The notes beneath the pieces were generated by a model. That model saw only the letters and a program-made list of their open reading frames with translations, was not told the DNA's origin and ran no database searches. DNA of 64,000 nucleotides, taken from the NCBI GenBank assembly GCA_903862465.1, contig CAIOYH010000163.1, forward strand, positions 7,289 to 71,288. Reading direction: 5' to 3'. The position numbers and the translations under genes are program-made. Positions within the stretch are counted from its first letter, which is position 1. Every line of letters begins with the position of its first letter. Of this stretch, positions 748-50,434 are shown in pieces. This stretch comes from an uncultured bacterium (GTDB lineage Bacteria; Bacteroidota; Bacteroidia; Bacteroidales; CAIWKO01).

Positions 748-996
748 TAAGATTATATCGATATCTTTTAAGATTATATCGACATCTTTTAAGATTATAT
801 CGTCATCCTTTAAGAAGATATCGACATCTTTTAAGATTTCATCGACATCCATTAAGAAGATATCGACATCCTCTAAGATTATATCTACATCCTCTAAGAA
901 GATATCGACATCTTTTAAGATTATATCGACATCCTCTAAGAAGATATCGACATCTCTTAAGATTTCATTGACATCATCATAAAAGATAAGGACATC
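748..996. repeat. 21-bp tandem array #1, 11 full units plus a degenerate 12th (consensus TAAGATTATATCGACATCTTT)
   Basis: Unit starts counted at 748, 769, 790, ... 958, exactly 21 bp apart. Units alternate between AAGATTATATCG and AAGAAGATATCG variants. Confidence 0.95.
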
Positions 997-1422: not shown

Positions 1423-4053
1423 ATGAAAATTTTGATTAAAACGTTTCGCAGCACTAAATATGGAGTTGCATTTTTCTTACTCTTGTTATGTGTGATGCAA
1501 AGGAACCAAGTTTATGGTCAAGGGCAGTTTGTGCAAGTGGAAAGTATATTGGTAGATGCGTGTAGCAGTCCTGAAGGGGAGAACGAAATGGTGGGCATCC
1601 GAGTGGAAAGTGTTGCGGTGAATGTAGCTGATATTCGCGTGGATGGAGCTTTAAACGGGGGCGCATGGCAAACGAGTAAATGGCCCAATACGAGTAATTC
1701 CTTTTTGGGATGGATAGTGCCCGGCTCAGCAGATTATACCACAGCGGTATCGAAAGTGGCTCAAATTAATGCGGCTATGACTAATTGCGGGAAATTAATC
1801 ATGCCCACAGGAGGCACCAACAATCAAGGATTGATTCCGGCAGGAAAACATGCCATCATTATCACTAGCACTGCTTTTGCTCCTTTTGCCAACAATTTCA
1901 CGAACTTAGCAGATACTTTATATGTGATTTTTCAGATTGCAGGAAACACCTCAGGGCATTTTGCCAATTACACCTCCGGCACCGGATTGAGAGCACTGCG
2001 TTTGCATCAAATTTCAACAGGAACCAATGAGGATGCTACCTACGATAAAGCTTTATTGATAGACCAATCGGGAAATCACACCGCACAAGATGGCGCCGGA
2101 GTTCGATTTACGGATGCCGGTTTGGCTACCTATTATAATATAGGCTGTGTGGCACCTTTTATACCCTTGAATCCTGCGTGGACATCCCCTGCCACTTCCT
2201 GTCAATTCGTGTCTCCTTTGAGCTTGACTACGCTATTGAGTGGTTTTTCCACTCTGGGAGGAACATGGTCGGGAACAGGGGTAAGCGGCACTATGTTTAA
2301 TCCGAATGGCATAGCAGGAAGTTATGCCATAACCTATAGTGTGGGAACTGCACCTTGCAATTTAACCGAAACACATAACATAGTAGTTGCTTTTTCGTCT
2401 ATACCGTCTTGGACAGCCCCCGCGCCTTTATGCCAATCTGCCACACCGATTGATTTGGCTACCTTATTGGGAGGTTTATCCACATCAGGAGGAACGTGGA
2501 CCGGAATAAGCGTTAGCGGAACCATCTTTAGCCCTGCGGGATTGAATGGAAATATCAATATTACCTATTCTGTAGGCACTTCACCTTGTAATGCTACAGA
2601 AAGTCATTCGATACAAGTGGTAGCAAGTGCTATCCCAACATGGACAGCACCGGCACCTTTATGCCAATCTGCTACGCCCATTAATTTGAATACTTTATTG
2701 GGAGGTTCATCCACTTCGGGAGGAACATGGACAGGAACAGGCGTAAGCGGAACCACCTTTAGCCCTGCGGGATTGAATGGAAATATCACTGTTACCTATT
2801 CTGTTGGCACTTCACCCTGTAATGCTACAGAAAGTCATACGATACAAGTTATATCGACTGCTATCCCTACATGGACAGCCCCCGCACCTTTATGCCAATC
2901 TGCTACGCCGATTGATTTGAATACCTTATTAGGAGGTTTGTCCACATCAGGAGGAACATGGACCGGAACAGGGGTTAGCGGAACCATCTTTAGCCCTGCG
3001 GGATTGAATGGAAATATCAATGTTACCTATTCTGTAGGCACTTCACCTTGTAATGCTACAGAAAGTCATACGATTCAAATATTGCCTGATATGAATGCAG
3101 CTTGGACAGCTCCTGCGAATTCGATGTGTAATGACGCTGCGGCTATCAATTTGTCCTCACTCGTCACAGGCAATGCAGGAGGGACATGGAGTGGACAAGG
3201 GGTTAGTGGTACACAATTTAATCCTACAGGATTGAGCGGAGCCATAGCAGTCACGTATTCGGTTTCGGGTGCAAATGCTTGTCCTGATACCGTTACACAT
3301 ATCATTACCGTGATTCCCAAACCCAATGCTTCGTGGACTATTCCTCCCATGATTTGTACCAATCAAAGCACCTTCGATTTGAATACAGTTGTTACAGGGT
3401 CTATAGGTGGAACTTGGAGCGGAGTAGGTGTTAATTCCAATATTTTAGATCTTAGCAGTGTTGGTGCTTCGCTTATGGTTACTTATACAGTAAACAATGG
3501 AGGCTGCTCGGATTCGCAAAGTGGGTTATTGCATTTTTCGGTCTTCACTGCCGATTTTTCACTAAATACCTATTCGGGAATAGCGCCCTTAAATGTTTAT
3601 ACCACCAACTTATGCCAAAATGCTACATCCTATAATTGGAATTTTGGGAATGGAGAAACATCAACAGCTATTGAGCCATCAACAACTTATCTTTATGGCG
3701 GCACCTATAATGTTTGGTTGGTAGCAACCTCTGCACAAGGTTGTGTTGATTCGGTTCATAAAGTAGTGGTTATTGAAGAGTCGGGTGATTTTATACCCAA
3801 TGTGTTTACTCCTAATGGAGATGGATTGAACGAAACCTTTTATCCCGTGATTTCAAAAGTTGTTGATAGCTTTAATATGATTGTTTACAATCGTTGGGGC
3901 AACAAACTTTATGATAGCGATAGTCAATTGGATAAATGGGACGGAACCTACCAAGGTAAGTTTGTGCCGACAGGTGTGTATTTTTATGTGATAGCATATA
4001 AATTTAATCACAAAGCTATTCGCCATAATGGTACCATTACGGTGATATACTAA
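1423..4053 (+). CDS. Large secreted adhesin-like protein with a T9SS type-B (gliding-motility CHU_C-like) C-terminal sorting domain
   Basis: ATG 1423 gives the signal peptide MKILIKTFRSTKYGVAFFLLLLCVMQRNQVYGQ; the track ORF starts at the upstream TTG 1378. It has six ~77-aa Cys-containing Ig-like repeats (WTAPAPLCQSATPIDL..GGTWTG.GVSG..F.P.GL.G...TYSVG..C) and a PKD-like domain (YNWNFGNGETS..GGTYNVWLVA). The C-terminus reads IPNVFTPNGDGLNETF...WDGTY.G..VPTGVYFYVI..GTITVIY. Confidence 0.9.
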   Translation: MKILIKTFRSTKYGVAFFLLLLCVMQRNQVYGQGQFVQVESILVDACSSPEGENEMVGIRVESVAVNVADIRVDGALNGGAWQTSKWPNTSNSFLGWIVPGSADYTTAVSKVAQINAAMTNCGKLIMPTGGTNNQGLIPAGKHAIIITSTAFAPFANNFTNLADTLYVIFQIAGNTSGHFANYTSGTGLRALRLHQISTGTNEDATYDKALLIDQSGNHTAQDGAGVRFTDAGLATYYNIGCVAPFIPLNPAWTSPATSCQFVSPLSLTTLLSGFSTLGGTWSGTGVSGTMFNPNGIAGSYAITYSVGTAPCNLTETHNIVVAFSSIPSWTAPAPLCQSATPIDLATLLGGLSTSGGTWTGISVSGTIFSPAGLNGNINITYSVGTSPCNATESHSIQVVASAIPTWTAPAPLCQSATPINLNTLLGGSSTSGGTWTGTGVSGTTFSPAGLNGNITVTYSVGTSPCNATESHTIQVISTAIPTWTAPAPLCQSATPIDLNTLLGGLSTSGGTWTGTGVSGTIFSPAGLNGNINVTYSVGTSPCNATESHTIQILPDMNAAWTAPANSMCNDAAAINLSSLVTGNAGGTWSGQGVSGTQFNPTGLSGAIAVTYSVSGANACPDTVTHIITVIPKPNASWTIPPMICTNQSTFDLNTVVTGSIGGTWSGVGVNSNILDLSSVGASLMVTYTVNNGGCSDSQSGLLHFSVFTADFSLNTYSGIAPLNVYTTNLCQNATSYNWNFGNGETSTAIEPSTTYLYGGTYNVWLVATSAQGCVDSVHKVVVIEESGDFIPNVFTPNGDGLNETFYPVISKVVDSFNMIVYNRWGNKLYDSDSQLDKWDGTYQGKFVPTGVYFYVIAYKFNHKAIRHNGTITVIY
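2401..3093 (+). repeat. Three near-identical in-frame 231-bp tandem repeats inside the adhesin gene (more divergent copies span about 2170-3555)
   Basis: Repeat starts at 2401, 2632 and 2863 (231 bp apart). The encoded 77-aa units differ at only a few residues. The repeats also create the recurring antisense ORFs at 2334-2558, 2604-2789 and 2835-3020. Confidence 0.9.
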
Positions 4054-9100: not shown

Positions 9101-9627
9101 CAACAAAATATAATGAAAACATGTTGACTTACGATTCTACTTTTGACCAAACCGGTTACTTAGATGCGTATTCTTATTTCAACACAAACGACAGAACTAT
9201 CCGTTTCTCGGCTACAAATATCTCAGGTGGAAACATCCAAGCCGGTGTAACTTTAGTGTTAGTTCGTTTCCATAATTTAGATGGAACTATGGTTCCTGCT
9301 TACTTAGATTCAGTTAGAGCTTACATCAATGGTAGCCCTGCTATCATCAAATTGACTTCGCCTACAGTAGGTATAGCAACCAACAAAGCTGAACGCAACG
9401 TTACTGTTTATCCAAATCCAACGACTAATATTTTGAATGTGATTGTTTCTGAAGATTCAAAATTGGAAATGCTTGATTTGAATGGCAAAGTGGTTGTTGC
9501 TGAAACCAATGTGAATGCAAAACAACATCAAGTGATTGATGTTACTTCTCTCGCCAATGGCGTATATATGCTAAAAGTGTATAACGACAAGTATGTGAAA
9601 ATGCAAAAAGTTGTTATTAATAGATAA
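6199..9627 (+). CDS. Scaffoldin-like surface protein: three Ig-like repeats, two cohesin-like modules, an internal dockerin-like loop and a T9SS type-A sorting domain
   Basis: Signal peptide MKKILLGVSLIVLAMFGKAQ. Three ~91-aa Ig-like repeats (ITAP.N......G..V.I.ATAADADGTVT.VEFFVDG...G.DNTAPY) lie at about 7018-7840. The cohesin-like segments are STFTLPFIAVDSVHNVIGYDLVLNYNINKITPTG..GTINITLS..GNLFTISFNK (about 7840-8230) and GGDVSVPVSMITNTVVNGIDFATKYNENMLTYDS (about 8998-9360). DVNMDGVVSAGDVSQLSQRIV is at about 8587-8660. The C-terminus reads VTVYPNPTTNILNV...GVYMLKVYNDKYVKMQKVVINR. Confidence 0.85.
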   Translation: MKKILLGVSLIVLAMFGKAQNGLENVTVEKYYISNAADAAGSVGHGTLPVGSITYRIYADMLPGYKFQMAYGNANHNLIMTTSTTFYNSTDYGQTTPTNTKTNVAKWTTMLDSWLSVGGACNGNLGIMKSEDNGVNNVVNAQGLLANTAALMGIPLTTQDGLIAGTPESVTFVGFTTQADVFGDGTANGSSFTLNNQAWSSLNGSTGATANNRVLIAQITTDGVFHYELNIQIGTPTGGVEVYVSSSPQTPNGNGQNEITIPSLTGTLNVAPSVSITAPTNNTHSITGDVVAINATAADADGTVTQVEFFVDGVSKGIDNTAPYTVNYTGVTGTHTLTAVATDNDGLTKTSDPITLIVAPNQAPTISITSPSNGANFITGAVVAIAATAADADGTVTSVEFFVDGASIGVDNTAPYTANYTSILGPHTLTAKATDDRSAQTTSSTISISVLNNVPPTVSLTAPSNGSSVTAPTAVTINATAADADGSVTKVEFYVNGTLIGEDLSAPYSFVWTSVVGTANITAKATDNGGAFTTSSTVTISVLDPFALPYKVGSVSSSCAASTFTLPFIAVDSVHNVIGYDLVLNYNINKITPTGIVTKVGDLVNANYFDITKYINPVAGTINITLSLNGSAPVGTYFHGVGNLFTISFNKAGGFNNVDTATVSVTGLQESYITGVSTKLAESGKYISYKDNIFNGTLQFWNAYDPIQYNVANPNQYLITNIYGTNGACVASPTAVQPNTSGVFNYDINNGQFISIKRDILPTVDMMSVLNAGTDVFLAKKVVTSNPTFIPNVYQMIAMDVNMDGVVSAGDVSQLSQRIVLAIPEFKQAWNYSVGGVSDGRPSKDWEFVDLTTVTNNAAYQISTTYPANDGVGFSKSHVPSVAFCLEPPVLDYNTCPQITNETYEGILLGDVDGSYKNIAADGLLKEGLQLATDTVMFDLAHAIYSGGDVSVPVSMITNTVVNGIDFATKYNENMLTYDSTFDQTGYLDAYSYFNTNDRTIRFSATNISGGNIQAGVTLVLVRFHNLDGTMVPAYLDSVRAYINGSPAIIKLTSPTVGIATNKAERNVTVYPNPTTNILNVIVSEDSKLEMLDLNGKVVVAETNVNAKQHQVIDVTSLANGVYMLKVYNDKYVKMQKVVINR

Positions 9628-9651
9628 CATGGTTAGTGAATAATGAAAAAA

Positions 9652-9679
9652 AGCTCCGACATTTGTTGGGGCTTTTTTT
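9652..9679 (+). terminator. Rho-independent terminator
   Basis: agctcc ... ggggct 6-bp stem (one G-U pair) followed by T7, 25 bp after the stop at 9627. Confidence 0.6.
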
Positions 9680-9729
9680 ATTTCGTTTTAGTTCTTATTT
9701 TAGTTCATTGTTGTCCGATTCAATATCCT

Positions 9730-9880
9730 TTTTTTATACTGTCGTACCTACGTCACTTTTACGTTTCCTTTAATCGTTTGTTCTACCATACTGTCGTACC
9801 TACGGTACTTTTTGAAGCCTTGTTAGAGGCGGCATTATGGTAGAAAAATATACGTAAAGAAAATCAAGCCCCGATAGGGG
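9730..9880. repeat. Cluster of short REP-like hairpin elements
   Basis: atactgtcgtacctacg occurs twice, 53 bp apart. The second copy contains the hairpin gtacc-tac-ggtac. The hairpin gcccc-gata-ggggc follows at about 9869. Confidence 0.6.
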
Positions 9881-10003
9881 CGACATTATAAAAGTATTTG
9901 CCATTAGGTGTTTTAAAAGGGCTCTTCCTTTTTTACAGAACAACGGTGATTTTATTTGTACAAACTCAAGGATTCGAGGTTATGACATTAGGCAGGACGG
10001 CTG

Positions 10004-10684
10004 TTACGCTTCAAATTTATAGCCAACGCCTTTCACGGTTTTGATGTTGTCGATTTTTAGTTTCTCGCGCACCTTGCGTACATGCACATCCATGGTTCTT
10101 TCGCTCGAAAGGGTCTGTCCCCAAATGGTAGAAAATATTTCGTGGCGGGTGAACACTTTGTTTACTTTGGATACCAATAGCCACAACAATTCAAATTCTT
10201 TTCGTGGCAGTATGATTTCCTCATCATTATGAACCACCATATATTTTTCTTTATAGATAACGATATCGCCCACAATTTTCTTATCGAAGGTGTCTTCAAA
10301 ATAACTGAAACGTCGCAACAAAGCCTTCACCCTACGGATAAGCAAACGGGGGTTGATAGGTTTCACGATATAATCATCAGCCCCTGCATCAAATCCTGCA
10401 ATTTGCGAAAAGTCTTCGCCGCGAGCCGTCAGAAACACAATGATAGATTTGTTTAATGCCGAAATTGTTTTGATTTCTTTGCAGGTCTCTATGCCGTCCA
10501 ATCCGGGCATCATCACATCTAAAATGATGAGATGAGGTTTGATTTCTTCAGCAATCCGCAAGGCTTCTTCACCATTTCCGACTCTTAAAACGGTATATTT
10601 TTCTTTTGTCAGAATAGCTTCGAGCATATCAAGCACATCCGCTTCATCGTCCACCAAGAGTATTTTATAATCTTTATTTTTCAT
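10004..10684 (-). CDS. OmpR/PhoB-family response regulator (receiver plus winged-helix), orphan with no adjacent kinase
   Basis: ATG at 10684 gives MKNKDYKILLVDDEADVLD; the track start is an upstream TTG. Receiver motifs are DVMMPGLDG, LTARGE and KP. The C-terminal winged helix reads TMDVHVRKVREKL..VKGVGYKFEA. Confidence 0.9.
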   Translation of the reverse strand: MKNKDYKILLVDDEADVLDMLEAILTKEKYTVLRVGNGEEALRIAEEIKPHLIILDVMMPGLDGIETCKEIKTISALNKSIIVFLTARGEDFSQIAGFDAGADDYIVKPINPRLLIRRVKALLRRFSYFEDTFDKKIVGDIVIYKEKYMVVHNDEEIILPRKEFELLWLLVSKVNKVFTRHEIFSTIWGQTLSSERTMDVHVRKVREKLKIDNIKTVKGVGYKFEA

Positions 10685-10910: not shown

Positions 10911-11264
10911 TCAACAAATTTCGGGAATACAACTGCCCACTTGTAATAACCATGTGGCTATAATGGGCAATATGAAATGGGTTGAAGGTTTGGGTTTCGG
11001 AGGTAGCTCTACCAAAAGAAGCAAATCGCCGCAGTGCATAAATTCGCCCGGCGATATTTGGAGCGTATTGGCTATAATCATCATCGTATCGAATTGGATG
11101 TTCATTTTTCCATGCTCTATCAAACTCAAATTCGAGCGAGGAATGCCCGAAAGCTCGCTAAAATGCTCTTGTGTGTACTTTTTATCACATCTTAGCTCAT
11201 AGAATCTGTTTCCATAAGCTATACTTTGCGTCGGAAACAGAATTGGTTTGCCGTTTCTTTCCAT
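10911..11264 (-). CDS. XRE-family helix-turn-helix transcriptional regulator (C-terminal part uncertain, possible frameshift)
   Basis: HTH_3-like core YELRCDKKYTQEHFSELSGIPRSNLSLIEHGKMNIQFDTMMIIANTLQISPGEF. The tail after PGEF looks unlike protein sequence, and another frame stays open down to 10795. Confidence 0.6.
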   Translation of the reverse strand: MERNGKPILFPTQSIAYGNRFYELRCDKKYTQEHFSELSGIPRSNLSLIEHGKMNIQFDTMMIIANTLQISPGEFMHCGDLLLLVELPPKPKPSTHFILPIIATWLLQVGSCIPEIC

Positions 11265-11486: not shown

Positions 11487-11820
11487 TTAGGCTTCGGCAA
11501 GCAACTTAGGGGCTTCGGAGAGAGACTCAGAGGCTACTTCGAACGACTTAGTGGCTGTGGAGAGCGAATTAGAAGCTTCGGAGAGCGAATTAGCGACTGT
11601 GGCGAACGACTTAGCTGCTAAGGATAGAGAATTAGCGACTGCATCGAACGACTTAAAGGCTTAGGCGAGAGAATTAGCGACTGCGGCGAGAGAATAAGAG
11701 GCTGAGGAGAGAGAATCAGAGGCTGCGGCGAACGACTTAGGGGCTTCGGAGGGAGAATCAGAGGCTTCGGAGAGCGAATTAGAGGCTTCGGAGAGCGAAT
11801 TAGGGGAAGAATTGCCCTCC
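11487..11820. repeat. 21-bp tandem array #2, 16 units (consensus TTAGAGGCTTCGGAGAGCGAA)
   Basis: Unit starts at 11506, 11527, ... 11800, 21 bp apart; the first unit is 19 bp. Two interleaved unit subtypes end in GAGAGCGAA or CGAACGAC. Confidence 0.95.
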
Positions 11821-11933
11821 GAAATGAAACCGCCTCATAATGAAGCAATTTAATGTAGATAAAAGTGGGTTTATACGCAAAATGGAATTATCAATTAAAT
11901 AAAATAAATGTTTCACTAAAAAACCTAATTATT

Positions 11934-12548
11934 ATGAACACAATTAAATACAGTTATTCAAAACTAGCCCAAGGCACTTTTCTCGAAAAACTTGGCTTTA
12001 TTATTTTTTCATGTACCGACAACGTCAACTTCCCCACATTGGTCGTAACTGTTGCTCTTATTATTGCCAAAAAAGAAGCATACGAAGAGCAATTAGACAA
12101 GTCGAAAGCGGGAGATCATCAAGCCACCACCTTGGCTCGGAAATACAGAAAAGAATTGGAGTTGATGTTGAAAAAGAATGGAATCTACATCAATTTTACT
12201 GCCGATGGAGACATAACAAAGTTAATTTCTAGCGGTTATGATTTGGCTAAAATTCCGGTAAGAACACCTCGTCCGGAAATAGAAATATTGCCATCGTCGC
12301 AACGCGGTGTAGCAAAAGTTATCATTCAAAAAGGTGAAAAGGATGTTGCTTATCAAGTGGAAACACATGCCGACCCCATTCCACCTTTGCCTGCCGACCA
12401 ACGTTGGCAACGGCAACCTATGTGTACAAGACATTATCAATCCATTTCGGGGATTCCTGTTGACACAAATATGTGGTTACGCTATTATACGGTTTCTCCT
12501 GATGGCGAAATCGGACCAAAAGGACCCTTTAAATTCAAAATTTTATAA
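11934..12548 (+). CDS. Hypothetical protein: helical N-terminal part plus Fn3/Ig-like C-terminal domain (paralog of 49772..50434)
   Basis: ATG 11934 (MNTIKYSYSKL); the track start is the upstream GTG 11865. It shares an architecture with 49772..50434: ..SSGYDLAK / ..RNGYGVGK, then a Pro-containing linker, then beta-rich G.VAK.I..K..K.Y.V. Confidence 0.65.
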   Translation: MNTIKYSYSKLAQGTFLEKLGFIIFSCTDNVNFPTLVVTVALIIAKKEAYEEQLDKSKAGDHQATTLARKYRKELELMLKKNGIYINFTADGDITKLISSGYDLAKIPVRTPRPEIEILPSSQRGVAKVIIQKGEKDVAYQVETHADPIPPLPADQRWQRQPMCTRHYQSISGIPVDTNMWLRYYTVSPDGEIGPKGPFKFKIL

Positions 12549-13830: not shown

Positions 13831-16800
13831 ATGAAAAAGAATCTATTTGCATTCGTTTTATTGGTAACACTTTTTAGTGTTGCGAAATCATTCGGACAAA
13901 CCAACACACGGTTTAACGATGGTTATCTCACTGTTTACAAAGCCACCTCGGCTTCTGCACTAGCCAACACAGGAACCGCCATTGTGGCTGAAGAATACAA
14001 CACCACCACAACTACACAAGCGGCTCCCAATTATAGTGTTGCCATTCCAACAGCCACGGGAAACAAGCTTGTTGTTTCGGGCACTGCCACATCTTCGGGA
14101 GGCATGACGCGTTCCGAAAATGGCAGATATTTATTGATGCCGGGCTACAATGGTTTGATAGGCGATGCCAATTCCACCTTTACCACCAATGGCGCAGTCA
14201 GAACGATAAATGGAACCGGAACTGTGGGCGCAGGAATTGCGGCAAATGGTTTACTTTGGCTGTCCGCTAGTAATAATTTAAGAGGAGCTACAAGCGATGA
14301 TGGCACCAATTATTGGATTTCGGGCAATGGAGTTGGCATACAAACTTCCACAACAGGAAACCCAATAACCACAATTACAACAACTTCAACCAACAATCGC
14401 GATGTAGTCATTTATAATGGACAATTGTATTTTACTACCGGTGCCGGTTCGCAAGGAATTTATAGTGTTTCAACAGGGAAACCTATCACAATCGGACAAG
14501 TTTCAACCCGATTGTTTACTCCTTTAAATACCGATACCTATGCTTTTTCAATCAGCCCCGATGCCACTACCTTATATTATGTGGCTTCCACCGGAGGCGG
14601 CATTTATCGTTGCACCTATAACGGAACTACTTGGACCACCGGAACGCAAATCGTTAGCGGCGCGGGCTACACCGGCATTGCTGTGGATTGGTCGAATTAT
14701 GCTTTTAGTGCTGCGGCTGCCAATGGAGCTAGAATTTTTGCTTCCAATCCTTCCACTATCATTGCTGCAAACGACAACGGAACGGCGGTTACTACTACCA
14801 CAATTTTAAGAACCGAGCCTGCTCCAACCATGAATGCATTTCGACAAATTGCATTTTCGCCCATCAAACAAACCATTACCCTCGGTGCAAATACGCCAAA
14901 CGCTTCCAATTTGAGTCCTTCCACAAACAATAATGTTTTATTCCAATTCAATTTGAATGCCAATGAAGGAAATGCTACACTGAAAAAATTAATTCTAAAT
15001 CAATCGGGAACCGCCACCATAGGTACAGGTAATGACATCAGCAATTTTAAACTTATTGATGATGCTAATAACAATGGTATAGCCGATCCTGCCGAACTTG
15101 CTTCCCCTTTGGCTACAGGCACTGTCGCTTCTTCAAATATTACATTCAGTTCTATTGTTCTTTCATCCTATATAACTGAAGGTACAAGCAAAAACTTTAT
15201 TATGGTGGGAGATGTTTCAGCCTCTGCGCCTAATGGAGCAACTTTTGTTCCAAGTATTGTTTCCAACAAAACATTAAACGGAAACAATTATACCACCAAT
15301 GCAGTCAATGCGGGAAATAGTTGGGTAACGATTGGTGCAACACCACCAACAGGCAACACATTGACTATTGCAAGCTGCACAGCACTGAGTATTACATCTC
15401 AAGCTGTAAGTCCAACGGCAGTTTGCGAAGGCAGCGGCACAGCAAAAATCTATACACATCTGATCGGCACAGCACCTTTCACCTATCAATGGAAAGAGAA
15501 CAATGTTCCGATTTCCAATAATGCTACTTACAGTGGAGCTACCTCTGATACGCTGAAAATTACGAATCCAAGTCTGTCATTAAATGGGAATACCTATAAA
15601 TGTGTTGTTTCAAATTGTGCGGGAACAGATTCCACCAACAATCTTGCAACCTTGACTGTTATTGCAGCTCCAAGCCAACCCACCGCAAGCGCCACAGGGC
15701 AACCTACGTGTTCTGTTGCCACAGGAGCCATTACGGTTACTGCACCTACGGGAGTTGGAATCACCTACAGCATTGATGGAACAACATACACCAACACCAC
15801 GGGCATTTTCAATGATGTAGCTGCAGGAAATTATTATGTTACGGTTAAGAATTCTGACAACTGTCCTTCACCTCAATCACCTCAGATAACCATCAATGCC
15901 CAACCGCAGACACCTGCCGCTCCAACAGTTAGTGTAACCGAACCTACATGTTCTTCTGCAAATGGAAATGTAGCCGTAACATCAACCACAACAGGCTTGA
16001 CCTTTAGTAACGATGGCGTAAACTATGCAGGGTATGCTTCACCATTTGTTTATGCAGCGAATGCCACCTATAGTATTACGGCTCAAAACACAAATGGATG
16101 TATCTCTTCGGCAGCTATCGGAACCTTAGCAGCTCAACCACAAACTCCATCTGCTCCGTCAGTAAGTGTAACACAACCAACCTGTGCATCTTCAAATGGA
16201 ACAGTAGCCATAACATCTTCCACAACGGGATTAACGTTCAGTACTGATAGTACAAACTATGCCGCATATACTTCCCCATTTGTGGTTGCTGCCAATGCCG
16301 CCTATAGCATCAAAGCAAGGAATGCAAGCGGATGTATATCCACCGCAGTTGCAGGAACCATGGGTGCTCAACCACAAACTCCTGCTGTTCCTTCAGTAAG
16401 CCTAACCCAACCAACTTGTTCATCTGCTACAGGAACCATAGCGATAACATCTTCTACAATAGGATTAACTTTTACTACCGATAGTGCGAATTTTGCTGCA
16501 TACGTTGCCCCATTTACCTTTGCAGCCAATGCAGCCTATAGTATCATGGCAAGAAATGCTGATGGATGTGTTTCAACAGCTACAACAGGCACAATGAATG
16601 CTCAACCGCAAACACCTGCTTCGCCTTCCGTAAGCCTTACCCAACCTACTTGTTCATCTGCCACCGGATCGGTAGCGATAACTTCTACCACAACGGGATT
16701 AACTTTCAGCACGGATGGTATTAACTATGAAGTGTATGCTTCACCTTTTGTTGTTTCATCCGGTGCAGCCTACAGCATCACGGCAAGAAATGCCGATGGA

Positions 16801-18036
16801 TGTACCTCATTGGCAACCGTAGGAACCATGGGAGTTCAACCCTCTACACCCAATACTCCTTCAGTAAACGTAACGCCACCTACTTGTTCATCTGCCACCG
16901 GAACTGTAGCGATAACTTCTTCCACCACAGGATTAACTTTCAGCACCGATGGAACAAACTACGCAGCATACAGTTCTCCGTATGTTGTTGCTGCCAATGC
17001 AGCCTATAGCATCACTGCGAGAAATGGCAACGGATGTGTATCAACAGCCGTAACGGGAACCATGGGTGCTCAACCACAGACTCCTGCAGCTCCAACGGTA
17101 AGTGTTACCCAACCTACCTTTGTTTCTGCCACCGGATTTGTTACTATAACATCTTCCACCACCGATTTAACCTTCAGCACGAATGGAATCAACTATGCTG
17201 CTTATGTTGCTCCTTACGAATTTGCTGCAAGTGCAGCGTATAGCATCACTGCAAGAAATCTTGCCGGATGTGTATCTGTTGCAACCACAGGCACCCTGAA
17301 TGCGCAACCTCAAAACCAAACTCCTCCATCGGTTAGTATTACGTCTCCGGCAAATGCCTCCGTGTTTGATGTTTCGGATACCATTCATATAGTTGTTGAT
17401 GCTGTGGCTAATGGTGGAAATATTGTTCATGTTGATTTTTTAATGGGTGATGTTTCTATAGGAACAGACTCTATTGCTCCTTATACCAAGAATATTATTA
17501 CGACGCCGGGAGTACATACCCTAAAGGCGATAGCTTATGACAATCATCTATTGTCAGATACGTCTGTAGCGGTAAACATTGTTGCAAACAATATAAAACA
17601 TCCGGTTGTCACGATTAATGCTCCAATTAATATCTATTTATTATACCTTGACGGAGATTCTATAACGGTTTCGACAAGCACATTTGGTGCTGCAGGCATT
17701 GCCTTCTTGGAATTCTTTATTGATAATGTTTCATTTGGCACAGACAATACGTTTCCGTATGCTAAAAAATTCTTGGGCGACTTCGGCTCTCATGCCATAA
17801 CTGCAAAAGTACATGATTTATTAGGTGGAGTATATACTTCTCCTGCGGCTAATTTATTTGTGAAGTTTAAACCATCCGATTTCAACAATGATGCAGTGAT
17901 TGATATTAATGATTATTCAATGTTTGTTGGTAGCTTTGGACAATCATGCAATTGTATGCAGGATTTAAACAGAGATGGCGTGGTAAATATAAACGACTTC
18001 TCCATATTTGTTGGCACTTTCGGTCAACATCATTAA
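13831..18036 (+). CDS. Giant secreted multi-repeat protein ending in a two-segment dockerin-like module
   Basis: Signal peptide MKKNLFAFVLLVTLFSVAKSFGQ. The ~520-aa N-terminal module is paralogous to that of 18316..22992. An Ig I-set-like domain (FTYQWKENNVPISNN..YKCVVSNCAG) follows. Then come seven ~78-aa repeats (PQTP..P.VS.TQPTCSS..G.VAITSSTTGLTFS.DG.NY..Y..PF...A.AAYSI.ARN..GC.S), two Ig-like domains, and the C-terminus DFNNDAVIDINDYSMFVGSFGQ..DLNRDGVVNINDFSIFVGTFGQ. Confidence 0.9.
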   Translation: MKKNLFAFVLLVTLFSVAKSFGQTNTRFNDGYLTVYKATSASALANTGTAIVAEEYNTTTTTQAAPNYSVAIPTATGNKLVVSGTATSSGGMTRSENGRYLLMPGYNGLIGDANSTFTTNGAVRTINGTGTVGAGIAANGLLWLSASNNLRGATSDDGTNYWISGNGVGIQTSTTGNPITTITTTSTNNRDVVIYNGQLYFTTGAGSQGIYSVSTGKPITIGQVSTRLFTPLNTDTYAFSISPDATTLYYVASTGGGIYRCTYNGTTWTTGTQIVSGAGYTGIAVDWSNYAFSAAAANGARIFASNPSTIIAANDNGTAVTTTTILRTEPAPTMNAFRQIAFSPIKQTITLGANTPNASNLSPSTNNNVLFQFNLNANEGNATLKKLILNQSGTATIGTGNDISNFKLIDDANNNGIADPAELASPLATGTVASSNITFSSIVLSSYITEGTSKNFIMVGDVSASAPNGATFVPSIVSNKTLNGNNYTTNAVNAGNSWVTIGATPPTGNTLTIASCTALSITSQAVSPTAVCEGSGTAKIYTHLIGTAPFTYQWKENNVPISNNATYSGATSDTLKITNPSLSLNGNTYKCVVSNCAGTDSTNNLATLTVIAAPSQPTASATGQPTCSVATGAITVTAPTGVGITYSIDGTTYTNTTGIFNDVAAGNYYVTVKNSDNCPSPQSPQITINAQPQTPAAPTVSVTEPTCSSANGNVAVTSTTTGLTFSNDGVNYAGYASPFVYAANATYSITAQNTNGCISSAAIGTLAAQPQTPSAPSVSVTQPTCASSNGTVAITSSTTGLTFSTDSTNYAAYTSPFVVAANAAYSIKARNASGCISTAVAGTMGAQPQTPAVPSVSLTQPTCSSATGTIAITSSTIGLTFTTDSANFAAYVAPFTFAANAAYSIMARNADGCVSTATTGTMNAQPQTPASPSVSLTQPTCSSATGSVAITSTTTGLTFSTDGINYEVYASPFVVSSGAAYSITARNADGCTSLATVGTMGVQPSTPNTPSVNVTPPTCSSATGTVAITSSTTGLTFSTDGTNYAAYSSPYVVAANAAYSITARNGNGCVSTAVTGTMGAQPQTPAAPTVSVTQPTFVSATGFVTITSSTTDLTFSTNGINYAAYVAPYEFAASAAYSITARNLAGCVSVATTGTLNAQPQNQTPPSVSITSPANASVFDVSDTIHIVVDAVANGGNIVHVDFLMGDVSIGTDSIAPYTKNIITTPGVHTLKAIAYDNHLLSDTSVAVNIVANNIKHPVVTINAPINIYLLYLDGDSITVSTSTFGAAGIAFLEFFIDNVSFGTDNTFPYAKKFLGDFGSHAITAKVHDLLGGVYTSPAANLFVKFKPSDFNNDAVIDINDYSMFVGSFGQSCNCMQDLNRDGVVNINDFSIFVGTFGQHH
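15904..17307 (+). repeat. Six in-frame 234-bp tandem repeats inside the gene (a more divergent unit precedes them from about 15670)
   Basis: PQTP-encoding unit starts at 15904, 16138, 16372, 16606, 16840 and 17074, each 234 bp apart. Confidence 0.9.
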
Positions 18037-27941: not shown

Positions 27942-28844
27942 ATGTTATTTGCCTCTATTGATATCGGAACAAACGCTGTTCGTTTGTTATTTTCAAATGT
28001 TTATCTTCGCGATGAACAAATTTATGCTGAAAAAGCTTCCATCATACGCATCCCGATACGTTTGGGCGAAGATGTTTTTTCTATAAACTATATTTCTGAA
28101 GAGAAAATAGACCTTTTATTAAAAACCATGCGTGCCTTTAAACTGTTGATGGATGTTTACCGACCTCTTTCCTACATAGCCTGCGCCACTGCTGCCATGC
28201 GTGAAGCTTCCAATAGCGATGAGGTGGTCAGAAGAATTAAAGAAGAAGTGGGTATTGACATCAAGGTGATTAGCGGCAAGGAAGAAGCCGACATCGTTAC
28301 GGCAAGCAATCATGTGGTTTTGAAAGAGCCATTTAAGTACAAAATGTATGTGGATGTGGGCGGCGGAAGCACCGAAATTTCGCTTTTAAATCATCAAGGG
28401 CTTGTAGCATCAAAATCGTTTAAAATCGGAACCATTCGCTATTTAAAAAATAAAATAGATGAAAAGGAATGGGCAAAGATGCAAGATTGGTTGCTTGAAT
28501 TTAAAAAGGACTTTGGCAAGATTTATTTGGTGGGTTCGGGCGGCAACATCAACAAAATAACCAAAATGTATGGCAACAGAGATGCTTTTATGATTGAAAA
28601 GGAAGAGTTGATGAAAGCCTATGAGCAATTGAGCAAATTGACTTTAGCCGACCGCATCGAAATGTTGGGTTTGCGTCCCGATAGAGCCGATGTTATTGTG
28701 CCTGCGGCTATTATATTTATCAAAATAATGACTTGGATACGGACAGAAGTTGTGTATGTGCCTAAAATCGGATTGGCAGATGGATTGATTTATAAAGGTT
28801 ACTACGAATATCTTAAAAATAGTCCGGTTGAAAAATTCTTTTAA
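27942..28844 (+). CDS. ppx: Ppx/GppA-family exopolyphosphatase
   Basis: MLFASIDIGTNAVRLLF, ATAAMREASN and VDVGGGSTEISL are ASKHA/Ppx-GppA motifs. The start lies 1 nt after the preceding stop. Confidence 0.85.
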   Translation: MLFASIDIGTNAVRLLFSNVYLRDEQIYAEKASIIRIPIRLGEDVFSINYISEEKIDLLLKTMRAFKLLMDVYRPLSYIACATAAMREASNSDEVVRRIKEEVGIDIKVISGKEEADIVTASNHVVLKEPFKYKMYVDVGGGSTEISLLNHQGLVASKSFKIGTIRYLKNKIDEKEWAKMQDWLLEFKKDFGKIYLVGSGGNINKITKMYGNRDAFMIEKEELMKAYEQLSKLTLADRIEMLGLRPDRADVIVPAAIIFIKIMTWIRTEVVYVPKIGLADGLIYKGYYEYLKNSPVEKFF

Positions 28845-29088
28845 TGGCACCACATGGATTCACAGCTATTCTACAGCCGTGTGTAAACGAGATATGTTCG
28901 GTATCAACTCCGAAACGCATGTCATCGTGCGTGCTCAATTCATCATCAGCTACGATGCGCCTTGGATTGGACAATATCGAACACCGTGAATGTATCCTAT
29001 TGGCGGATTTCGTTCCTATTACATTAGATGTACAAAAACGAATATACGGAACGGCGAAAAACACATCGAAGGTAGCTAAAAGCATGCC

Positions 29089-29352
29089 GGCTACGCCTAG
29101 GACCACAATGGCGACGCCCAGGACCACAATAGCGACGCCCAGGACCACAATGGCGACGCCCAGGACCACAATGGCGACGCCCAGGACCACAATGGCTACG
29201 CCTAGGACCACAATGGCGACGCCTAGGACCACAATGGCGACGCCCAGGACCACAATGGCGACACCCAGGACCACAATGGCGACACCTAGGACCACAATGG
29301 CTACGCCTAGGACCACAATTGTTACGCCTAGGACAACAATTGCTTTAGCTAG
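29089..29352. repeat. 21-bp tandem array #3, 12 near-identical units plus a partial unit (consensus GGCGACGCCCAGGACCACAAT)
   Basis: Unit starts at 29089, 29110, ... 29320, exactly 21 bp apart, with only 1-3 substitutions per unit. The array is visibly more GC-rich than its flanks and sits between convergent genes. Confidence 0.95.
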
Positions 29353-29515
29353 TATGGTTTTGACGACCTCCGATAAAATCTTGTCAACTTTGAATCAATT
29401 GTTTATGCAATTGTGATTTATCACTTTTCTTGTTATAAAGTCGAAGAGAATGAATTGGAATATAATCTGAAAGAACTATATATCTGAAGATTTATTCAAC
29501 TTTCGGTATTCCATA

Positions 29516-31159
29516 TTATGTATCCCATTTACGCATTCTATCATACAAAATAATCCCTTCGTATTTATCAAGCAAGATAGATTCGGAGTGTAAAGTGTCG
29601 CAATGAATTTCGTTGGTAGAATAGATTTTCTTAAACTCGGTAGCTTCGGGCAAATCTATACGGCGTTGTTTGGGTTTGAAATTGATGAGAATTAAATATT
29701 TTTGATTTTCAAATTGACGAAAATATCCCAACACGCCATCCCTTCCTTTGATGAAAGGAATCCAATCTCCCTTATGCAATGCAGGATTTTCATTGCGCAA
29801 AGCGATTAAAAATTTATAATGATTCAAGATGGAATAATGAAGTTCTTCTAAGGTTTTCACGCAGCGGTGTCGCCATTTGGTGTCAATCGGAAGCCAAGGT
29901 TTGACAGTAGAAAATCCACCGAAATCATCATCGTCCCATTGCATAGGCGTGCGGCATTTGTCTCTGCCGCTATAAAGGGGCCAAATCTTTTTGCCCAAAG
30001 GGTCTTTCAGTTCGTTTTTCGGAATCCGCACATTGCCCATGCCAATTTCTTCGCCATAATAAATAAAAGGCGTTCCTTTTACGGTGAATTGAAACAAAGC
30101 GATGAGTTTTGCCACGTCGTGTTTGTTGCGTCGAAACCACAAACGATTGTAGTTGCGCCCCAAATCATGATTGGAAAACACATGAGTAGCCCATTCAATT
30201 TTATCGGCATTGTTGTTCCATTTTTTGAGATATTTGTAGTAAACCCGAGCGTTGAATGGGCGAAACACCAACGAAAAATCGAATGCCAAATGCAAGCGTC
30301 TTTTGTTTTTGTTGATATATTTCATCACTGTTTTAGGCTTTCCGGGCGGCAACACATAAATTTCGCCTATGCTGATGCGGTTGGGATACGTGTCCAAATG
30401 TTTTCTCAAACGTTCCACAACCTTGAAAGCCCCTTTTCGATTTCTGTTATAAATATGCTTTTGAAACCATGGGAGAAAGGCAAACACGGGGTTTGAGCGC
30501 AATTGCTTATCCTTCACTATCATGTTTATCACATCCAAGCGAAAGCCATCCACGCCCTTTTGGAGCCAAAAATCTATAATCGCAAAAAATTCGTCAGCCA
30601 TTTCTTTGCAGCGCCAATTCAAATCGGGTTGTTCTTTCAAAAAAGAGTGCATGTAATAGCTTTGCGTGGTTTCATCAAACTGCCATGCACTGCCGCCGAA
30701 AGCATTTTTCCAATTGTTTACAGGTTTCTTTTTAAGCCCGTCAGACCATAGATACCAATCTCGTTTCGGGTTTTCGCGTGATGATTTCGATTCCAAAAAC
30801 CATGGGTGTTGGTTAGAGGTATGATTCATCACCAAATCCATTATCACGTGAATATCGCGCTGATAACACGCATGCAATAACTGATTGAAATCGTCCATCG
30901 TTCCATAAATAGGATCAATTTCATAATAATCGCTTATGTCATATCCAAAATCTTTTTGCGGCGATTTATAGATGGGCGAAAGCCAAATGGCGTTCACTCC
31001 TAAATCTTTAATGTAATCAAGTTTGCGAATAATGCCCTGCAAATCGCCCAACCCATCGTGATTCGAATCATAAAAACTCATGGGGTAAATGTGGTAAACA
31101 ACCCCGTGTTTCCACCACACATGCTCCGAATCTTCCGCTTTAGTCGGGGAAATGAACAT
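29516..31159 (-). CDS. GH13 alpha-glucosidase / oligo-1,6-glucosidase-like glycoside hydrolase
   Basis: WWKHGVVYHIYPMSFYDSNHDGLGDLQGI..LDYIKDLGVNAIWLSPIYKSPQKDFGYDISDY, DLVMNHTS, GFRLDV and GEIY are GH13 conserved regions. The start overlaps the upstream gene by 20 nt. Confidence 0.9.
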   Translation of the reverse strand: MFISPTKAEDSEHVWWKHGVVYHIYPMSFYDSNHDGLGDLQGIIRKLDYIKDLGVNAIWLSPIYKSPQKDFGYDISDYYEIDPIYGTMDDFNQLLHACYQRDIHVIMDLVMNHTSNQHPWFLESKSSRENPKRDWYLWSDGLKKKPVNNWKNAFGGSAWQFDETTQSYYMHSFLKEQPDLNWRCKEMADEFFAIIDFWLQKGVDGFRLDVINMIVKDKQLRSNPVFAFLPWFQKHIYNRNRKGAFKVVERLRKHLDTYPNRISIGEIYVLPPGKPKTVMKYINKNKRRLHLAFDFSLVFRPFNARVYYKYLKKWNNNADKIEWATHVFSNHDLGRNYNRLWFRRNKHDVAKLIALFQFTVKGTPFIYYGEEIGMGNVRIPKNELKDPLGKKIWPLYSGRDKCRTPMQWDDDDFGGFSTVKPWLPIDTKWRHRCVKTLEELHYSILNHYKFLIALRNENPALHKGDWIPFIKGRDGVLGYFRQFENQKYLILINFKPKQRRIDLPEATEFKKIYSTNEIHCDTLHSESILLDKYEGIILYDRMRKWDT

Positions 31160-34570: not shown

Positions 34571-34780
34571 TTAATCATTAGAAACCCCCAACAAATCCAA
34601 CATAGTTTCCATAAAATCTGTTTTTGCTATTTCTGCTTTTTCGATACCTTTTTTATAAACCTCACAGGCTTTTTGATATTGACCGGAACTTTGAAACATT
34701 TTGCCAATCTCCAATAAATTATTGAAATAGCTTTCTTGCAACGAAAGCGCTTTTTCTTTTTCTGATAAAATAATATTCAT
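34571..34780 (-). CDS. Small helical protein (69 aa), tandem paralog of 34857..35054
   Basis: LSLQESYFNNLLEIGKMFQSSGQYQKACEVYKKGIEKAE aligns with LTVQESYLENLIKLGLLFENSGQHQKAFDVYKKGLENAE in the neighbour. It looks like a single TPR-like helix hairpin. Confidence 0.55.
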   Translation of the reverse strand: MNIILSEKEKALSLQESYFNNLLEIGKMFQSSGQYQKACEVYKKGIEKAEIAKTDFMETMLDLLGVSND

Positions 34781-34856: not shown

Positions 34857-35054
34857 TTAGTCCAACAGACCAAGCATGGTACCTTGTATAGTATTTACAG
34901 CTTTTTCTGCATTTTCAAGTCCTTTTTTATAAACATCAAAAGCTTTTTGATGTTGGCCTGAATTTTCGAATAACAAGCCTAACTTAATTAAATTTTCGAG
35001 ATAACTTTCTTGAACAGTAAGCAGATTTTCAAGCTCAACAAAACCATTTTCCAT
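34857..35054 (-). CDS. Small helical protein (65 aa), tandem paralog of 34571..34780
   Basis: Conserved at the protein level with its neighbour while the DNA has diverged, which argues that it really is coding. Confidence 0.55.
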   Translation of the reverse strand: MENGFVELENLLTVQESYLENLIKLGLLFENSGQHQKAFDVYKKGLENAEKAVNTIQGTMLGLLD

Positions 35055-35495
35055 AAAGAATATATATTATAAATTATGGTTGCAAAAGTAATAGCGCAAT
35101 ATTACTTACATATTAAGGGAATATTATTTCTGTATTAAGAAATGAAAGATAAATAAGACTTGTCAAAAACAATCCCTCTAAATTAGTTCAAACTACAAAA
35201 AGATAAAAATGATTTACAAAAGCCATGAAAATACAATTACCTCGTTATATCCTTTAGGCTATAAATCTTTTTCAAATCATTAGTAAACTGGTTCGACTTA
35301 ATACTTTCAAGGGCTACCTTATAGGAGATTCAGATTTTGCTTGATTGTTGAATTGTTTTCCTACTGTATTCGAATACGTATATTATGTTTACAGACATAA
35401 AAAAGCCAATGTCACAATATAATTATATCTAAATATCTATATAACAAATATATATAATTGTATTGCAACTATTCATGACACTATTTCAACTTAAA

Positions 35496-35767
35496 ATAAT
35501 GCTATATTTGGTAGAGATACCACTATGATTGGTTGAAATAGTGCTATATTAGGTAGGAATAGTGCTATATTTGGTGGGAATAGTGCTATGGCGGCTAGAG
35601 ATAGTGCTATGGCGGCTAGAGATAGTGCTATGACGACTAGAGATAGTGCTATGACGACCAGAGATATCGCTATGCCGGTTAGATATACTGCTATGGAGAG
35701 AAAAATAGTACTATATTTGGTAGAAATAGTGCTATGGCAACTTGAGATAGTGCAATGCCGTGCCGAA
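35496..35767. repeat. 21-bp tandem array #4, 13 units (consensus ATAGTGCTATGGCGGCTAGAG)
   Basis: Unit starts at 35496, 35517, ... 35685, then 35705 (one 20-bp unit), 35726 and 35747. The central units are near-identical and the outer ones degenerate. Confidence 0.95.
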
Positions 35768-35867
35768 ATTTTTAATTCATAGATATGAAATCTAAAAAAT
35801 TTCAACGTGTCATAATTAAATTTACATTATATTTTTTCAAAAATAATTTTCACATGAAAATATTTTG

Positions 35868-35875
35868 TACTTTTG
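35868..35875 (+). promoter_or_regulatory. Candidate -7 promoter box (TAnnTTTG) within the 13-mer gtacttttgttgc
   Basis: tacttttg lies 24 bp upstream of ATG 35899. The 13-mer is identical to 13751-13763. Confidence 0.45.
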
Positions 35876-35898
35876 TTGCAACCAAAAAAAATAATAAT

Positions 35899-49771: not shown

Positions 49772-50434
49772 ATGACAGATATTAATACAGATATCTCAGT
49801 TGCTGCAGTGCAATTAGTTTCAAAGAGACCGGTGCATGTTGCAGACAACATTACAATTTTTAGTACTACTTTAGATAAATTGGAAAGCAGCGGCGACAAT
49901 CTTGTTAAGCCTGCTGACATGATTATTTATCGTGGTAACGTCACCACCTTAAGCACCTGTCAAGATGATATGAGAGGTGGTGCTGACGATAAAAAACCCA
50001 AGAGAGACAAAGCTTATAGCGTATGTTTTGGCGACAACCGGACGAATATGCTTAAAGTTGAAGGAGCCTTGATTGGCATACCTAACCCTATGGATAAGGA
50101 AGCCCTAATCTTGAGAAATGGTTATGGAGTGGGAAAAGAACATGGTCCGATATCCAATCCGGATATTAGCATAAAAAATAAGAAAAACCAACCGGGCACT
50201 GTTGTTGCTAAAATAAAAAGCCCTAGCAAGACCAAATCGTATTCTGTTGATTGGCAAAGCAGCACAGATAATGGTGAGACATGGACACCCCATAATTCTA
50301 CTCCTGTTTGTAAACGGGAACTAAAAAACATGCCTTTAGCTTCACAACTGATAGTGCGCGCTAGAATTACGATTGGAAGCAACGACCCTGAAGGTTGGAA
50401 AGTTTCTAGTACTTTAGTAGTAGGAGCAGTATAG
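49772..50434 (+). CDS. Hypothetical protein with an Fn3/Ig-like C-terminal domain (paralog of 11934..12548)
   Basis: Same layout as 11934..12548: helical N-terminal half, RNGYGVGK, then PGTVVAKIKSPSKTKSYSVDWQSSTDNGETW.. No signal peptide. Confidence 0.65.
   Translation: MTDINTDISVAAVQLVSKRPVHVADNITIFSTTLDKLESSGDNLVKPADMIIYRGNVTTLSTCQDDMRGGADDKKPKRDKAYSVCFGDNRTNMLKVEGALIGIPNPMDKEALILRNGYGVGKEHGPISNPDISIKNKKNQPGTVVAKIKSPSKTKSYSVDWQSSTDNGETWTPHNSTPVCKRELKNMPLASQLIVRARITIGSNDPEGWKVSSTLVVGAV

Follow-up and report, generated by a model that had tools for sequence, protein, structure and literature searches.

Five intergenic tandem arrays with one period

The stretch of DNA analysed here, hereafter the window, is 64 kb of ordinary chromosome with a GC content of 39 %, and encodes T9SS cargo proteins, Ppk/Ppx, an amylase and glycosyltransferases. 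When its whole length was scanned by TRF, five short-period arrays were recovered (scores 113–392), every one of them with a period of 21 bp, and in three of them super-periods of 42 or 63 bp were found on top of it. Autocorrelation (lags 4–99, 126-bp windows) led to the same places, i.e. a self-match of at least 50 % was reached only in the five arrays and in a heptamer region at 63.5 kb; the array peaks lay at lag 21, 42 or 63, with a self-match of 0.57–0.95 as compared to a maximum of 0.44 in shuffled sequence. An earlier note on this DNA had described the arrays as intergenic and as all sharing a 21-bp period. Both methods confirm that they are real and that the period is strict, and the coordinates and unit counts given there agree with TRF to within a few bases. 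The arrays and their surroundings are the following:

A1, 745–975 (TRF), or to 996 with a degenerate 12th unit: period 21, 11.0 copies, 80 % matches
A1 sub-types: a, TTTTAAGATTATATCGACATC, and b, CTCTAAGAAGATATCGACATC, which alternate to give a 42-bp higher-order repeat
Left of A1: Fib_succ_major gene, ending at 536; terminator-like hairpin at 559–586
Right of A1: T9SS CHU_C adhesin gene, ATG at 1423, −7 box at 1357–1364; hairpin at 1079–1102
A2, 11489–11803 (TRF): 15.0 copies, 68 % matches; a 16th, partial unit extends to 11824
A2 higher-order structure, 42/63 bp: sub-units a, AGGCTTCGGAGAGCGAATTAG, and b, CGACTGCGGCGAACGACTTAG
A2 site: divergent region between an HTH_3 gene at 10911–11264 (minus strand) and a gene with a likely start at about 11935
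A3, 29089–29340: 12.0 copies, 93 %; GC-rich unit GGCGACGCCYAGGACCACAAT; the youngest array
A3 site: between the convergent Ppx and alpha-amylase genes
A4, 35494–35736 (TRF): 11.6 copies, 74 %; runs on to about 35766 after a 1-nt phase slip
A4 structure: about 13 units; core GATAGTGCTATG conserved, 9-nt spacer variable
Downstream of A4: TACTTTTG −7 box (about 35868, as read from the sequence), roughly 100 bp past the array end
T9SS gene beyond the −7 box of A4: ATG read at about 35899
A5, 50518–50667: 7.1 copies, 82 % matches; unit GAGCAGATTCCATTCATGACG
A5 site: between two same-strand genes of unknown function, 49772–50434 and 50898–51611

Each of the five arrays sits between ORFs. The Pfam-matched neighbours of A1–A4 are Fib_succ_major, T9SS adhesin, response regulator, HTH_3, Ppx, amylase, LMWPc and T9SS cargo genes; neither of the two genes beside A5 had a Pfam match. 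The gene to the right of A2 is the tool-listed ORF 11865–12548, its start at about 11935 being our reading of the sequence. Upstream of the adhesin gene, the TAnnTTTG box TACTTTTG at 1357–1364 begins 361 bp past the end of A1, and the positions reported earlier for this box and for the ATG at 1423 are correct. A4 is homogeneous in its middle and degenerate at its ends, the 1-nt phase slip lying near 35700, and its left flank (35290–35493) gives a weak lag-21 signal (z = 2.4). Terminator-like hairpins lie on either side of A1, at 559–586 and 1079–1102; such bracketing was seen at A1 alone, and arrays that form independent transcription units were rejected on account of these inconsistent terminators. 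The remaining long repeats of the window are 231- and 234-bp domain repeats within two T9SS adhesin genes, and the heptamer arrays, at 63572–63792, are separate from the 21-bp arrays.

While the repeat length is common to the arrays, the sequence is not, which is unusual. Comparison of the unit profiles of all array pairs, performed cyclically and on both strands, gave p-values of 0.06–0.92, i.e. the units are unrelated, and the 200-bp flanks of the arrays were no more similar to one another than shuffled controls and had no terminal repeats, in line with the lack of mutual similarity that had been noted before. No described family fits the arrays either, as had been suspected: Rfam 15 gave no match at gathering score over the whole window, no tRNAs or known RNAs were found when these were sought, and literature searches turned up no description of arrays with a 21-bp period in Bacteroidota.

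Occurrence in related genomes

The nearest genomes are lake-metagenome bins, i.e. L001 (Ppx 88 % identical at the amino acid level) and L002 (Ppx 82 %, amylase 97 %). L035, a SPAdes contig, encodes an amylase 93 % identical to that of the window, and more distant relatives, at around 70 % identity, are L051 (73 %) and the ELA706 MAG (L003, L036 and L055). Arrays with a 21-bp period are present in every one of these lineages. L001, with about 90 % nucleotide identity to the window, harbours the A3 unit and array; L002 and L035 harbour an older array with a unit close to TCACTTTTGTAGATACAAAAA; L051 carries around 15–17 units of TGCATGCGAGTGTGCACAAGT at 9221–9535, in the spacer between the DnaJ and aminotransferase genes; and in ELA706 about eight degenerate units with higher-order structure are found at 13812–13974 of L055.

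We report a census of this clade, which covers 171.7 kb of contigs rather than whole genomes (the window, L001, L002, L035, L051 and, from ELA706, L003, L036 and L055). All non-coding arrays with at least four copies in this sample have a period of 21 bp, and they represent eight unit families at seven loci. No 21-bp array was found in 457.8 kb from other Bacteroidota, where one 28-bp and one 14-bp array were the only ones. The earlier note had proposed a repeat census that asks whether 21 is enriched over other periods, and the outcome favours a real excess within the sampled 171.7 kb as compared to the 457.8 kb. By our own arithmetic, the chance that all seven loci would fall into the clade fraction, if arrays were evenly spread, is about 1e-4, and the chance that seven independent loci would have one common period is below 1e-7, even if multiples of three alone are allowed. 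In the window, the density amounts to about 78 arrays per Mb; in a survey of prokaryotes, just 18 bacterial species exceeded four satellites per Mb (PMC6749651). A metagenome scan with a glycosyltransferase yielded five distant loci (51–56 % identity), from which arrays were absent. The 21-bp arrays are a clade-wide trait of an uncultured freshwater lineage of Bacteroidota.

A young array within an older one

The spacer between the Ppx and amylase genes holds, in addition to A3, the remains of another array:

Relic units, 28990–29088: old type, TCACTTTTGTAGATACAAAAA (as in L002 and L035), on the Ppx side of A3 and in the same 21-nt register
Degenerate units, 29341–29414: about four further units, on the amylase side of A3
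28-bp flank, 29415–29442: GATTTATCACTTTTCTTGTTATAAAGTC, single-copy in the window

Since the same 28-bp flank also borders the older array of L002, A3 and that array occupy one locus. In both L002 and L035, the flank is followed by 12–13 units of the old type. In the window, the order starting from the flank is four decayed units, the twelve units of A3 and three old units of the TTTT type, all in one 21-nt register, and a lag-42 signal (z = 3.3) remains to the left of A3, at 28845–29088. As this arrangement shows, new arrays are born inside old ones and in register with them. An array has been kept at the Ppx–amylase locus across species divergence, and its unit sequence has been replaced between close relatives. 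Gain, loss and overwriting all take place in register, so that the period of an array stays the same throughout its life, even as the sequence is exchanged. In-register amplification accounts in this way for the persistence of the period at each locus, but not for the agreement between loci.

Gain, loss and decay of units

The number of A3 units is 12 in the window, 13 in L027 and 7 in L026, all of which encode an identical amylase, and the differences are exact blocks between identical units; these figures rest on short-read assemblies, to which assembly collapse could contribute in part. The variation in copy number between assemblies that had been anticipated is therefore present at this array, i.e. 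the one at 29.1 kb. The old arrays of L002 and L035 can be aligned unit by unit, with a sole internal indel of exactly 21 bp, and their flanks contain many small indels. Copy number thus changes by whole units, as in VNTRs, both at A3 and between L002 and L035, as far as short-read assemblies reflect it. By eye, the old arrays of L002 and L035 are about 85 % identical, and the fourfold sites of the adjoining amylase gene are 84 % identical, so that the old array decays near-neutrally, at about the rate of fourfold sites. No difference in copy number was seen among near-identical assemblies for the degenerate arrays A2 and A5: A2 is base-for-base identical in two other assemblies (BUCK21-scaffold and Logan contigs), and A5 is identical in another one, L028.

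As in the nested A3, a homogeneous half adjoins a degenerate half in the L051 array. The arrays are insertions into short spacers: the DnaJ–aminotransferase spacer that holds the L051 array measures 744 nt, versus 85 nt in ELA706. The higher-order repeats of 42 and 63 bp, which occur in A1, A2, A4 and L055, are the expected product of unequal exchange. Arrays are also located at junctions of rearrangement or recombination. At the site of A4, synteny with the ELA706 MAG is broken by an inversion, and at A3 the identity to L002 changes from 82 % on the Ppx side to 97 % on the amylase side.

A probable population of minisatellites

The arrays of the window consist of head-to-tail units within the 10–100 bp of minisatellites, in more copies than expected by chance. 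We consider that the five arrays are probably members of a clade-specific population of non-coding, VNTR-type minisatellites with a 21-bp unit. Whole 21-bp units are gained and lost, and variant units are amplified locally, resulting in the 42- and 63-bp higher-order repeats and in young homogeneous sub-arrays inside decayed arrays. Since independent loci all show a period of 21, an extra, clade-specific bias for exact two-turn duplications would be needed. The source of this bias would most likely be a feature of slippage or recombination, or a DNA-bound protein acting on a single helical face, and the biased step would be helped by the short palindromic cores that most units contain. Selection on the unit sequences is probably not the cause. 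The arrays themselves would most likely be neutral or nearly neutral passengers which inflate intergenic regions; they would mark the junctions left by rearrangement or recombination, and promoters nearby would be affected incidentally, if at all.

As for the figure of 21 itself, we infer that a length-measuring ‘ruler’ lies behind it. It is possible, and put forward here tentatively, that the clade possesses a molecular ruler in the proper sense, i.e. a replisome or repair feature, or a DNA-coating or dimeric protein, which makes or keeps exact two-turn duplications of any sequence. If so, the arrays would represent a new class of period-locked bacterial satellite DNA, perhaps serving as platforms for phased binding or chromosome organisation. 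Two-copy 21-bp duplications were not in excess in the window (TRF), so that a bias acting when arrays first arise is hypothetical. As a population of two-copy duplications is missing, we also rejected the idea that the arrays were left behind by a transposon which duplicates 21 bp of its target. An ancestry in triple heptamers (3×7) was rejected as well, there being no lag-7 signal; lag 7 is in fact among the lowest lags.

Phased protein binding as an alternative

A different view would be that the arrays are platforms for phased protein binding, comparable to iterons or centromeres, on which dimers occupy dyad cores along one face of the helix and assemble into a loop or filament, thereby either organising the chromosome or tuning promoters. 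We regard this as rather unlikely, even though several features are in its favour, beginning with the period, as 21 bp corresponds to two turns of the helix. A modest enrichment of palindromic cores was found: five of the eight unit families possess inverted arms of at least 4 nt around a centre of at most 2 nt (p = 0.018), and the summed arm length is 32 versus 23.6±2.6 in shuffles (p = 0.004), examples of dyad cores being ATCTT-TT-AAGAT, GGCG-A-CGCC, ATAG-TG-CTAT, TGTGCACA and TTTTGTA-GA-TACAAAA. Such cores may fit hairpin-stabilised slipped intermediates just as they may fit a dimeric protein on one face of the helix. The columns of the arrays are conserved to different degrees, more in the cores than in the spacers (p from <0.0002 to 0.11 across sets, in a test confounded by the joint amplification history of units such as the a/b sub-types). 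In most arrays the conserved core is contiguous; the pattern can be seen in TGCATG..A.TGTG of L051, in TTTTGTA..TACAAAA of L002/L035 and in GATAGTGCTATG of A4. This unevenness could be due to selection on binding sites, but amplification history alone can also yield it. Further points in favour of binding are the persistence of an array at the Ppx–amylase locus through species divergence and the position of most arrays upstream of a gene, several of these being T9SS cargo genes.

However, eight unrelated cores would call for eight proteins, or for one that does not read sequence, and no DNA-binding, rep or par gene is consistently found beside the arrays. Divergence of the old array proceeds about as fast as that of fourfold sites, units are replaced wholesale between close relatives, and copy number is unstable. 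Given the neutral rate of divergence, the wholesale replacement of units and the lack of cognate genes, a mutational, near-neutral origin as minisatellites is favoured over binding.

Coding potential

As each unit corresponds to seven codons, the arrays might instead encode small heptad-repeat peptides, cf. the amino-acid tandem repeats of Borgs, which we consider very unlikely. The period is a multiple of three, and the units as a set show a weak internal 3-nt periodicity (p = 0.005), for which the minisatellite reading does not account. In A3, internal variation falls into one codon phase (15:0:1), as in coding sequence, and in its minus-strand frame the last unit alone differs in an amino acid (one IVVLGVT among IVVLGVA). 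Its main variable site is also the inner C of a CCWGG motif (CCAGG), i.e. a deamination hotspot if methylated. Furthermore, A5 begins with an ATG, A1 holds a 90-codon ORF that starts with ATG, and gene callers place ORFs over A3.

Against coding, none of the six frames of A2 is free of stop codons, and in A4 just one frame is open from end to end. The earlier statement that the arrays stay open in several frames hence applies to A1 and A3 (four open frames each), but neither to A2 nor to A4. The plus-strand frame of A3 starts at a TAATG overlap with Ppx and is interrupted by a stop codon in L001; moreover, the 244-bp stretch before A3 differs from L001 at 26 positions without any excess at wobble positions, i.e. 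dN is about equal to dS. The minus-strand frame, (IVVLGVA)n, has no upstream start codon, and its tail is full of replacements. The sole frame open through the old array of L002 contains a stop near its 5′ end in L035, together with many non-conservative replacements. In L051, the conserved columns include would-be wobble positions. Scores for codon usage, calculated as the best of six frames for twelve unit consensus sequences (the eight unit families plus sub-types), never exceeded those of composition-matched shuffles (p = 0.09–0.81), and the ORFs called over A3 are on opposite strands in different assemblies. No Pfam domain was matched at threshold by the array ORFs, the only hit being a low-complexity one of the A1 ORF to LbR_Ice_bind, with a sub-threshold 18.8 bits as compared to a cut-off of 30. 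Based on stops, missing starts, codon usage, divergence and Pfam, heptad peptides were rejected for the set as a whole, and the arrays are almost certainly non-coding; the unit of seven codons, which had been thought to keep frames open, does not lead to coding.

Curvature, common descent and assembly

Selection for intrinsically curved DNA, in which bends add up every two turns, is also highly improbable. The phasing geometry is valid for any 21-bp tandem repeat, and A2 and the old unit of L002/L035 are predicted to be strongly bent in both of the wedge models applied. In contrast, the predicted bends of all units spread over the random distribution (3rd to 100th percentile of random 21-mers); those of A3, A4 and A5 are at or below the median, and either model predicts A3 to be almost straight. 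Among the 5 % of window segments with the strongest curvature, the Bolshoy model places none of the arrays and the Olson model only A1 and A2. This is a rough test; as far as it goes, it disagrees with the proposal that curvature is a common property of the arrays.

Descent from one mobile element or dispersed repeat family, whose pieces would have inherited their period from a common ancestor, is likewise highly improbable. The period is inherited within an array, as in the nested A3, and non-coding satellite families dispersed through the genome have been described in Leptospira (PMC6749651). Here, however, units and flanks are unlike one another, terminal repeats are lacking, and no extra copies of the units exist elsewhere in the window or in the retrieved loci. 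A Pfam scan of the window ORFs identified no transposase adjoining any array. The possibility raised before that the arrays are fragments of a single mobile element is accordingly contradicted by the lack of common units, flanks and terminal repeats, and a dispersed element of the MITE or REP type was rejected on similar grounds, i.e. unrelated units, unrelated flanks and absent extra copies. A search of IMG/VR with the units returned one 19-nt match only, probably by chance, beyond which a phage origin of the units has no support from this database.

Many de Bruijn assemblers begin at k = 21, and many short-read contigs stop at these arrays, where other assemblies break, but an assembly artefact was rejected. 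The units are not perfect copies, and a cycle in the assembly graph could not give rise to the variants that are specific to single units. Moreover, different assemblers, as judged by record names (k141_, NODE_ and Logan), recover the same arrays: the A3 unit occurs both in k141_ and in BUCK21 contigs, a NODE_ contig contains the old-type array, and arrays are also present in a separate NCBI MAG.

Comparison with known tandem repeats

Bacterial VNTRs or minisatellites, such as the MIRU loci of mycobacteria, are intergenic head-to-tail repeats of tens of bp. The arrays described here resemble them in the gain and loss of whole units between strains, in their decay with age and in their higher-order repeats. 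To our knowledge, however, VNTR loci within a genome either form a sequence family or differ in the length of their units, whereas at least eight unrelated families with exactly one period are found here.

The best analogue with respect to a conserved period with differing sequence is provided by the STRR of cyanobacteria, which comprise several sequence families. STRR are usually 7-bp repeats, intergenic, without known function and restricted to certain lineages (PMC2670836). In contrast to STRR, the arrays have a period of 21 without any 7-bp sub-periodicity and belong to another phylum; heptamers of the STRR type were rejected, as the unit period is not 7 and signals at lags 7 and 14 are absent.

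In their dynamics, the arrays are closest to the tandem repeats of Borgs, where many unrelated arrays likewise originate independently within a single genome. Borg repeats are A-rich and near-perfect, with about half of them located in ORFs as amino-acid repeats, and they form unrelated, fast-evolving arrays whose copy number varies in populations and for which replication slippage has been proposed (PMC9879509). Since only 14–38 % of their intergenic unit lengths are divisible by three (PMC9879509), Borg repeats show no period lock. The arrays studied here differ in being of all ages, non-coding and of one period.

Similarity to the iterons of plasmids or phages and to type Ib/II centromere repeats is restricted to geometry, i.e. 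direct repeats that recur about every two turns of the helix, so that bound proteins lie along one face, and that combine a conserved core with a variable spacer. Iterons and these centromere repeats are direct repeats of around 17–22 bp, spaced by about two turns and bound by proteins of the Rep or ParR type; their arrays, typically of 3–12 units, are found next to the cognate rep or par gene, and each replicon has a single sequence family. The window, in contrast, holds five unrelated arrays in 64 kb of ordinary chromosome, and no rep or par gene is found beside any of them, for which reason both classes were rejected.

Two further candidates were set aside. Operators of LytTR-type response regulators consist of two, rarely three, direct repeats of 9 bp that follow a family consensus and lie upstream of the promoter they regulate, and a spacer of 12 bp brings their period to 21 bp; with 7–16 units and no common consensus, the arrays coincide with them in the 21-bp spacing only. 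They are not CRISPR arrays, as the units abut without spacers and no cas domains were present among the window ORFs scanned.

As far as we know, tandem-repeat arrays are rare in most bacteria and, where common, have either varying unit lengths or one sequence family. Unrelated arrays with a single two-turn period point towards a length-measuring step in the birth or maintenance of repeats, and we know of no description of such a step for bacterial minisatellites. The ruler, if identified, would give access to the way in which slippage and recombination work, or to an unknown protein that organises DNA. On the practical side, the arrays break short-read assemblies of the clade and cause spurious ORF calls, and they would serve well as markers for strain typing.

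Rearrangement around arrays A3 and A4

Comparison of window 28844-29516 with the corresponding sequence of two close lake-metagenome relatives (L001 and L002) shows mosaic relatedness around A3, the non-coding 21-bp array flanked by the convergent Ppx and amylase genes. While Ppx shares 82 % amino-acid identity with its L002 counterpart, the adjacent amylase shares 97 % (0.88 at fourfold sites), which places A3 at a recombination or gene-content junction. At this junction, L002 carries five additional genes, two of which looked like a putative toxin-antitoxin pair.

The more distant ELA706 MAG (locus L036) was compared over window 9627-10004 and about 35100-35790. Relative to this genome, the block RR...amylase-GT-LMWPc-small ORFs is inverted in the window, with array A4 coinciding with one end of the inversion, and around 18 kb, comprising adhesins, Ppk/Ppx, A2 and A3, is inserted. 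The stretch between LMWPc and A4 holds two paralogous ORFs of about 65 codons each, and ELA706 has two ORFs of 65 aa at the corresponding position:

34590-34780, minus strand, ORF MENGFVELENLLTVQESYLENLIKLG...
34870-35060, minus strand, ORF MNIILSEKEKALSLQESYFNNLLEIG...

Downstream of A4, the start of the listed ORF 35785-36762 was probably called too early: a -7 box (TACTTTTG) at about 35868 is followed at about 35899 by ATGAAAAAAATT, encoding MKKILL, which resembles a signal peptide, and both fit a gene start at about 35899. The exact-protein look-up with the listed ORF recovered nothing, presumably because the real start lies at this later position.

Composite heptamer element and adjoining GC-rich segment

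Two further features adjoin each other at 63.5 kb and recur in other retrieved contigs:

63572-63792, composite repeat element, also in L041:120-310 and L039:1-30
63800-63900, GC-rich segment containing GGAGCGGATAGCCCACAGGGGCGTTATTCAGCCCCGAGGACTATGAGCGGACAGCC, also in L041:1-110

The composite element, which resembles the cyanobacterial STRR heptamer repeats, consists, in this order, of about 10 CCAAATA-type heptamers, two copies of a 41-bp unit (ATTCGTAACCTGTCCCGTACATGAAATGTCGGGATTCGCCC) that contains a hairpin, and about five TTGGATC-type heptamers, which are in part the reverse complement of the CCAAATA-type set. In contrast to the window, L041, from another strain, has different heptamer counts and a single 41-bp unit. 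The ends of several retrieved short-read contigs fall at or near this element. The GC-rich segment, strongly unlike the 39 % GC genome in composition and without a match in Rfam, is conserved with variation in L041 and contains internally repeated GAGCG(G/T)A(A/T/C)AGCC motifs.

Other tandem repeats

Outside the array-bearing clade, the period of each of the few arrays found is a multiple of 7, which may be coincidence. Locus L024 carries a 14-bp array, and three Paenimyroides/Myroides genomes carry a 28-bp array (TAATTATAGGTTAAATAAACGATATTTT-type) near Ppx, with units that look similar by eye:

L010:1769-1881
L012:2000-2084
L013:559-645

Within the window, two T9SS adhesin genes contain longer tandem repeats:

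2410-3078, 231-bp unit, 2.9 copies
15897-17180, 234-bp unit, 5.5 copies

Both encode ordinary protein domain repeats, 77-78 aa long, and have no relation to the 21-bp arrays.
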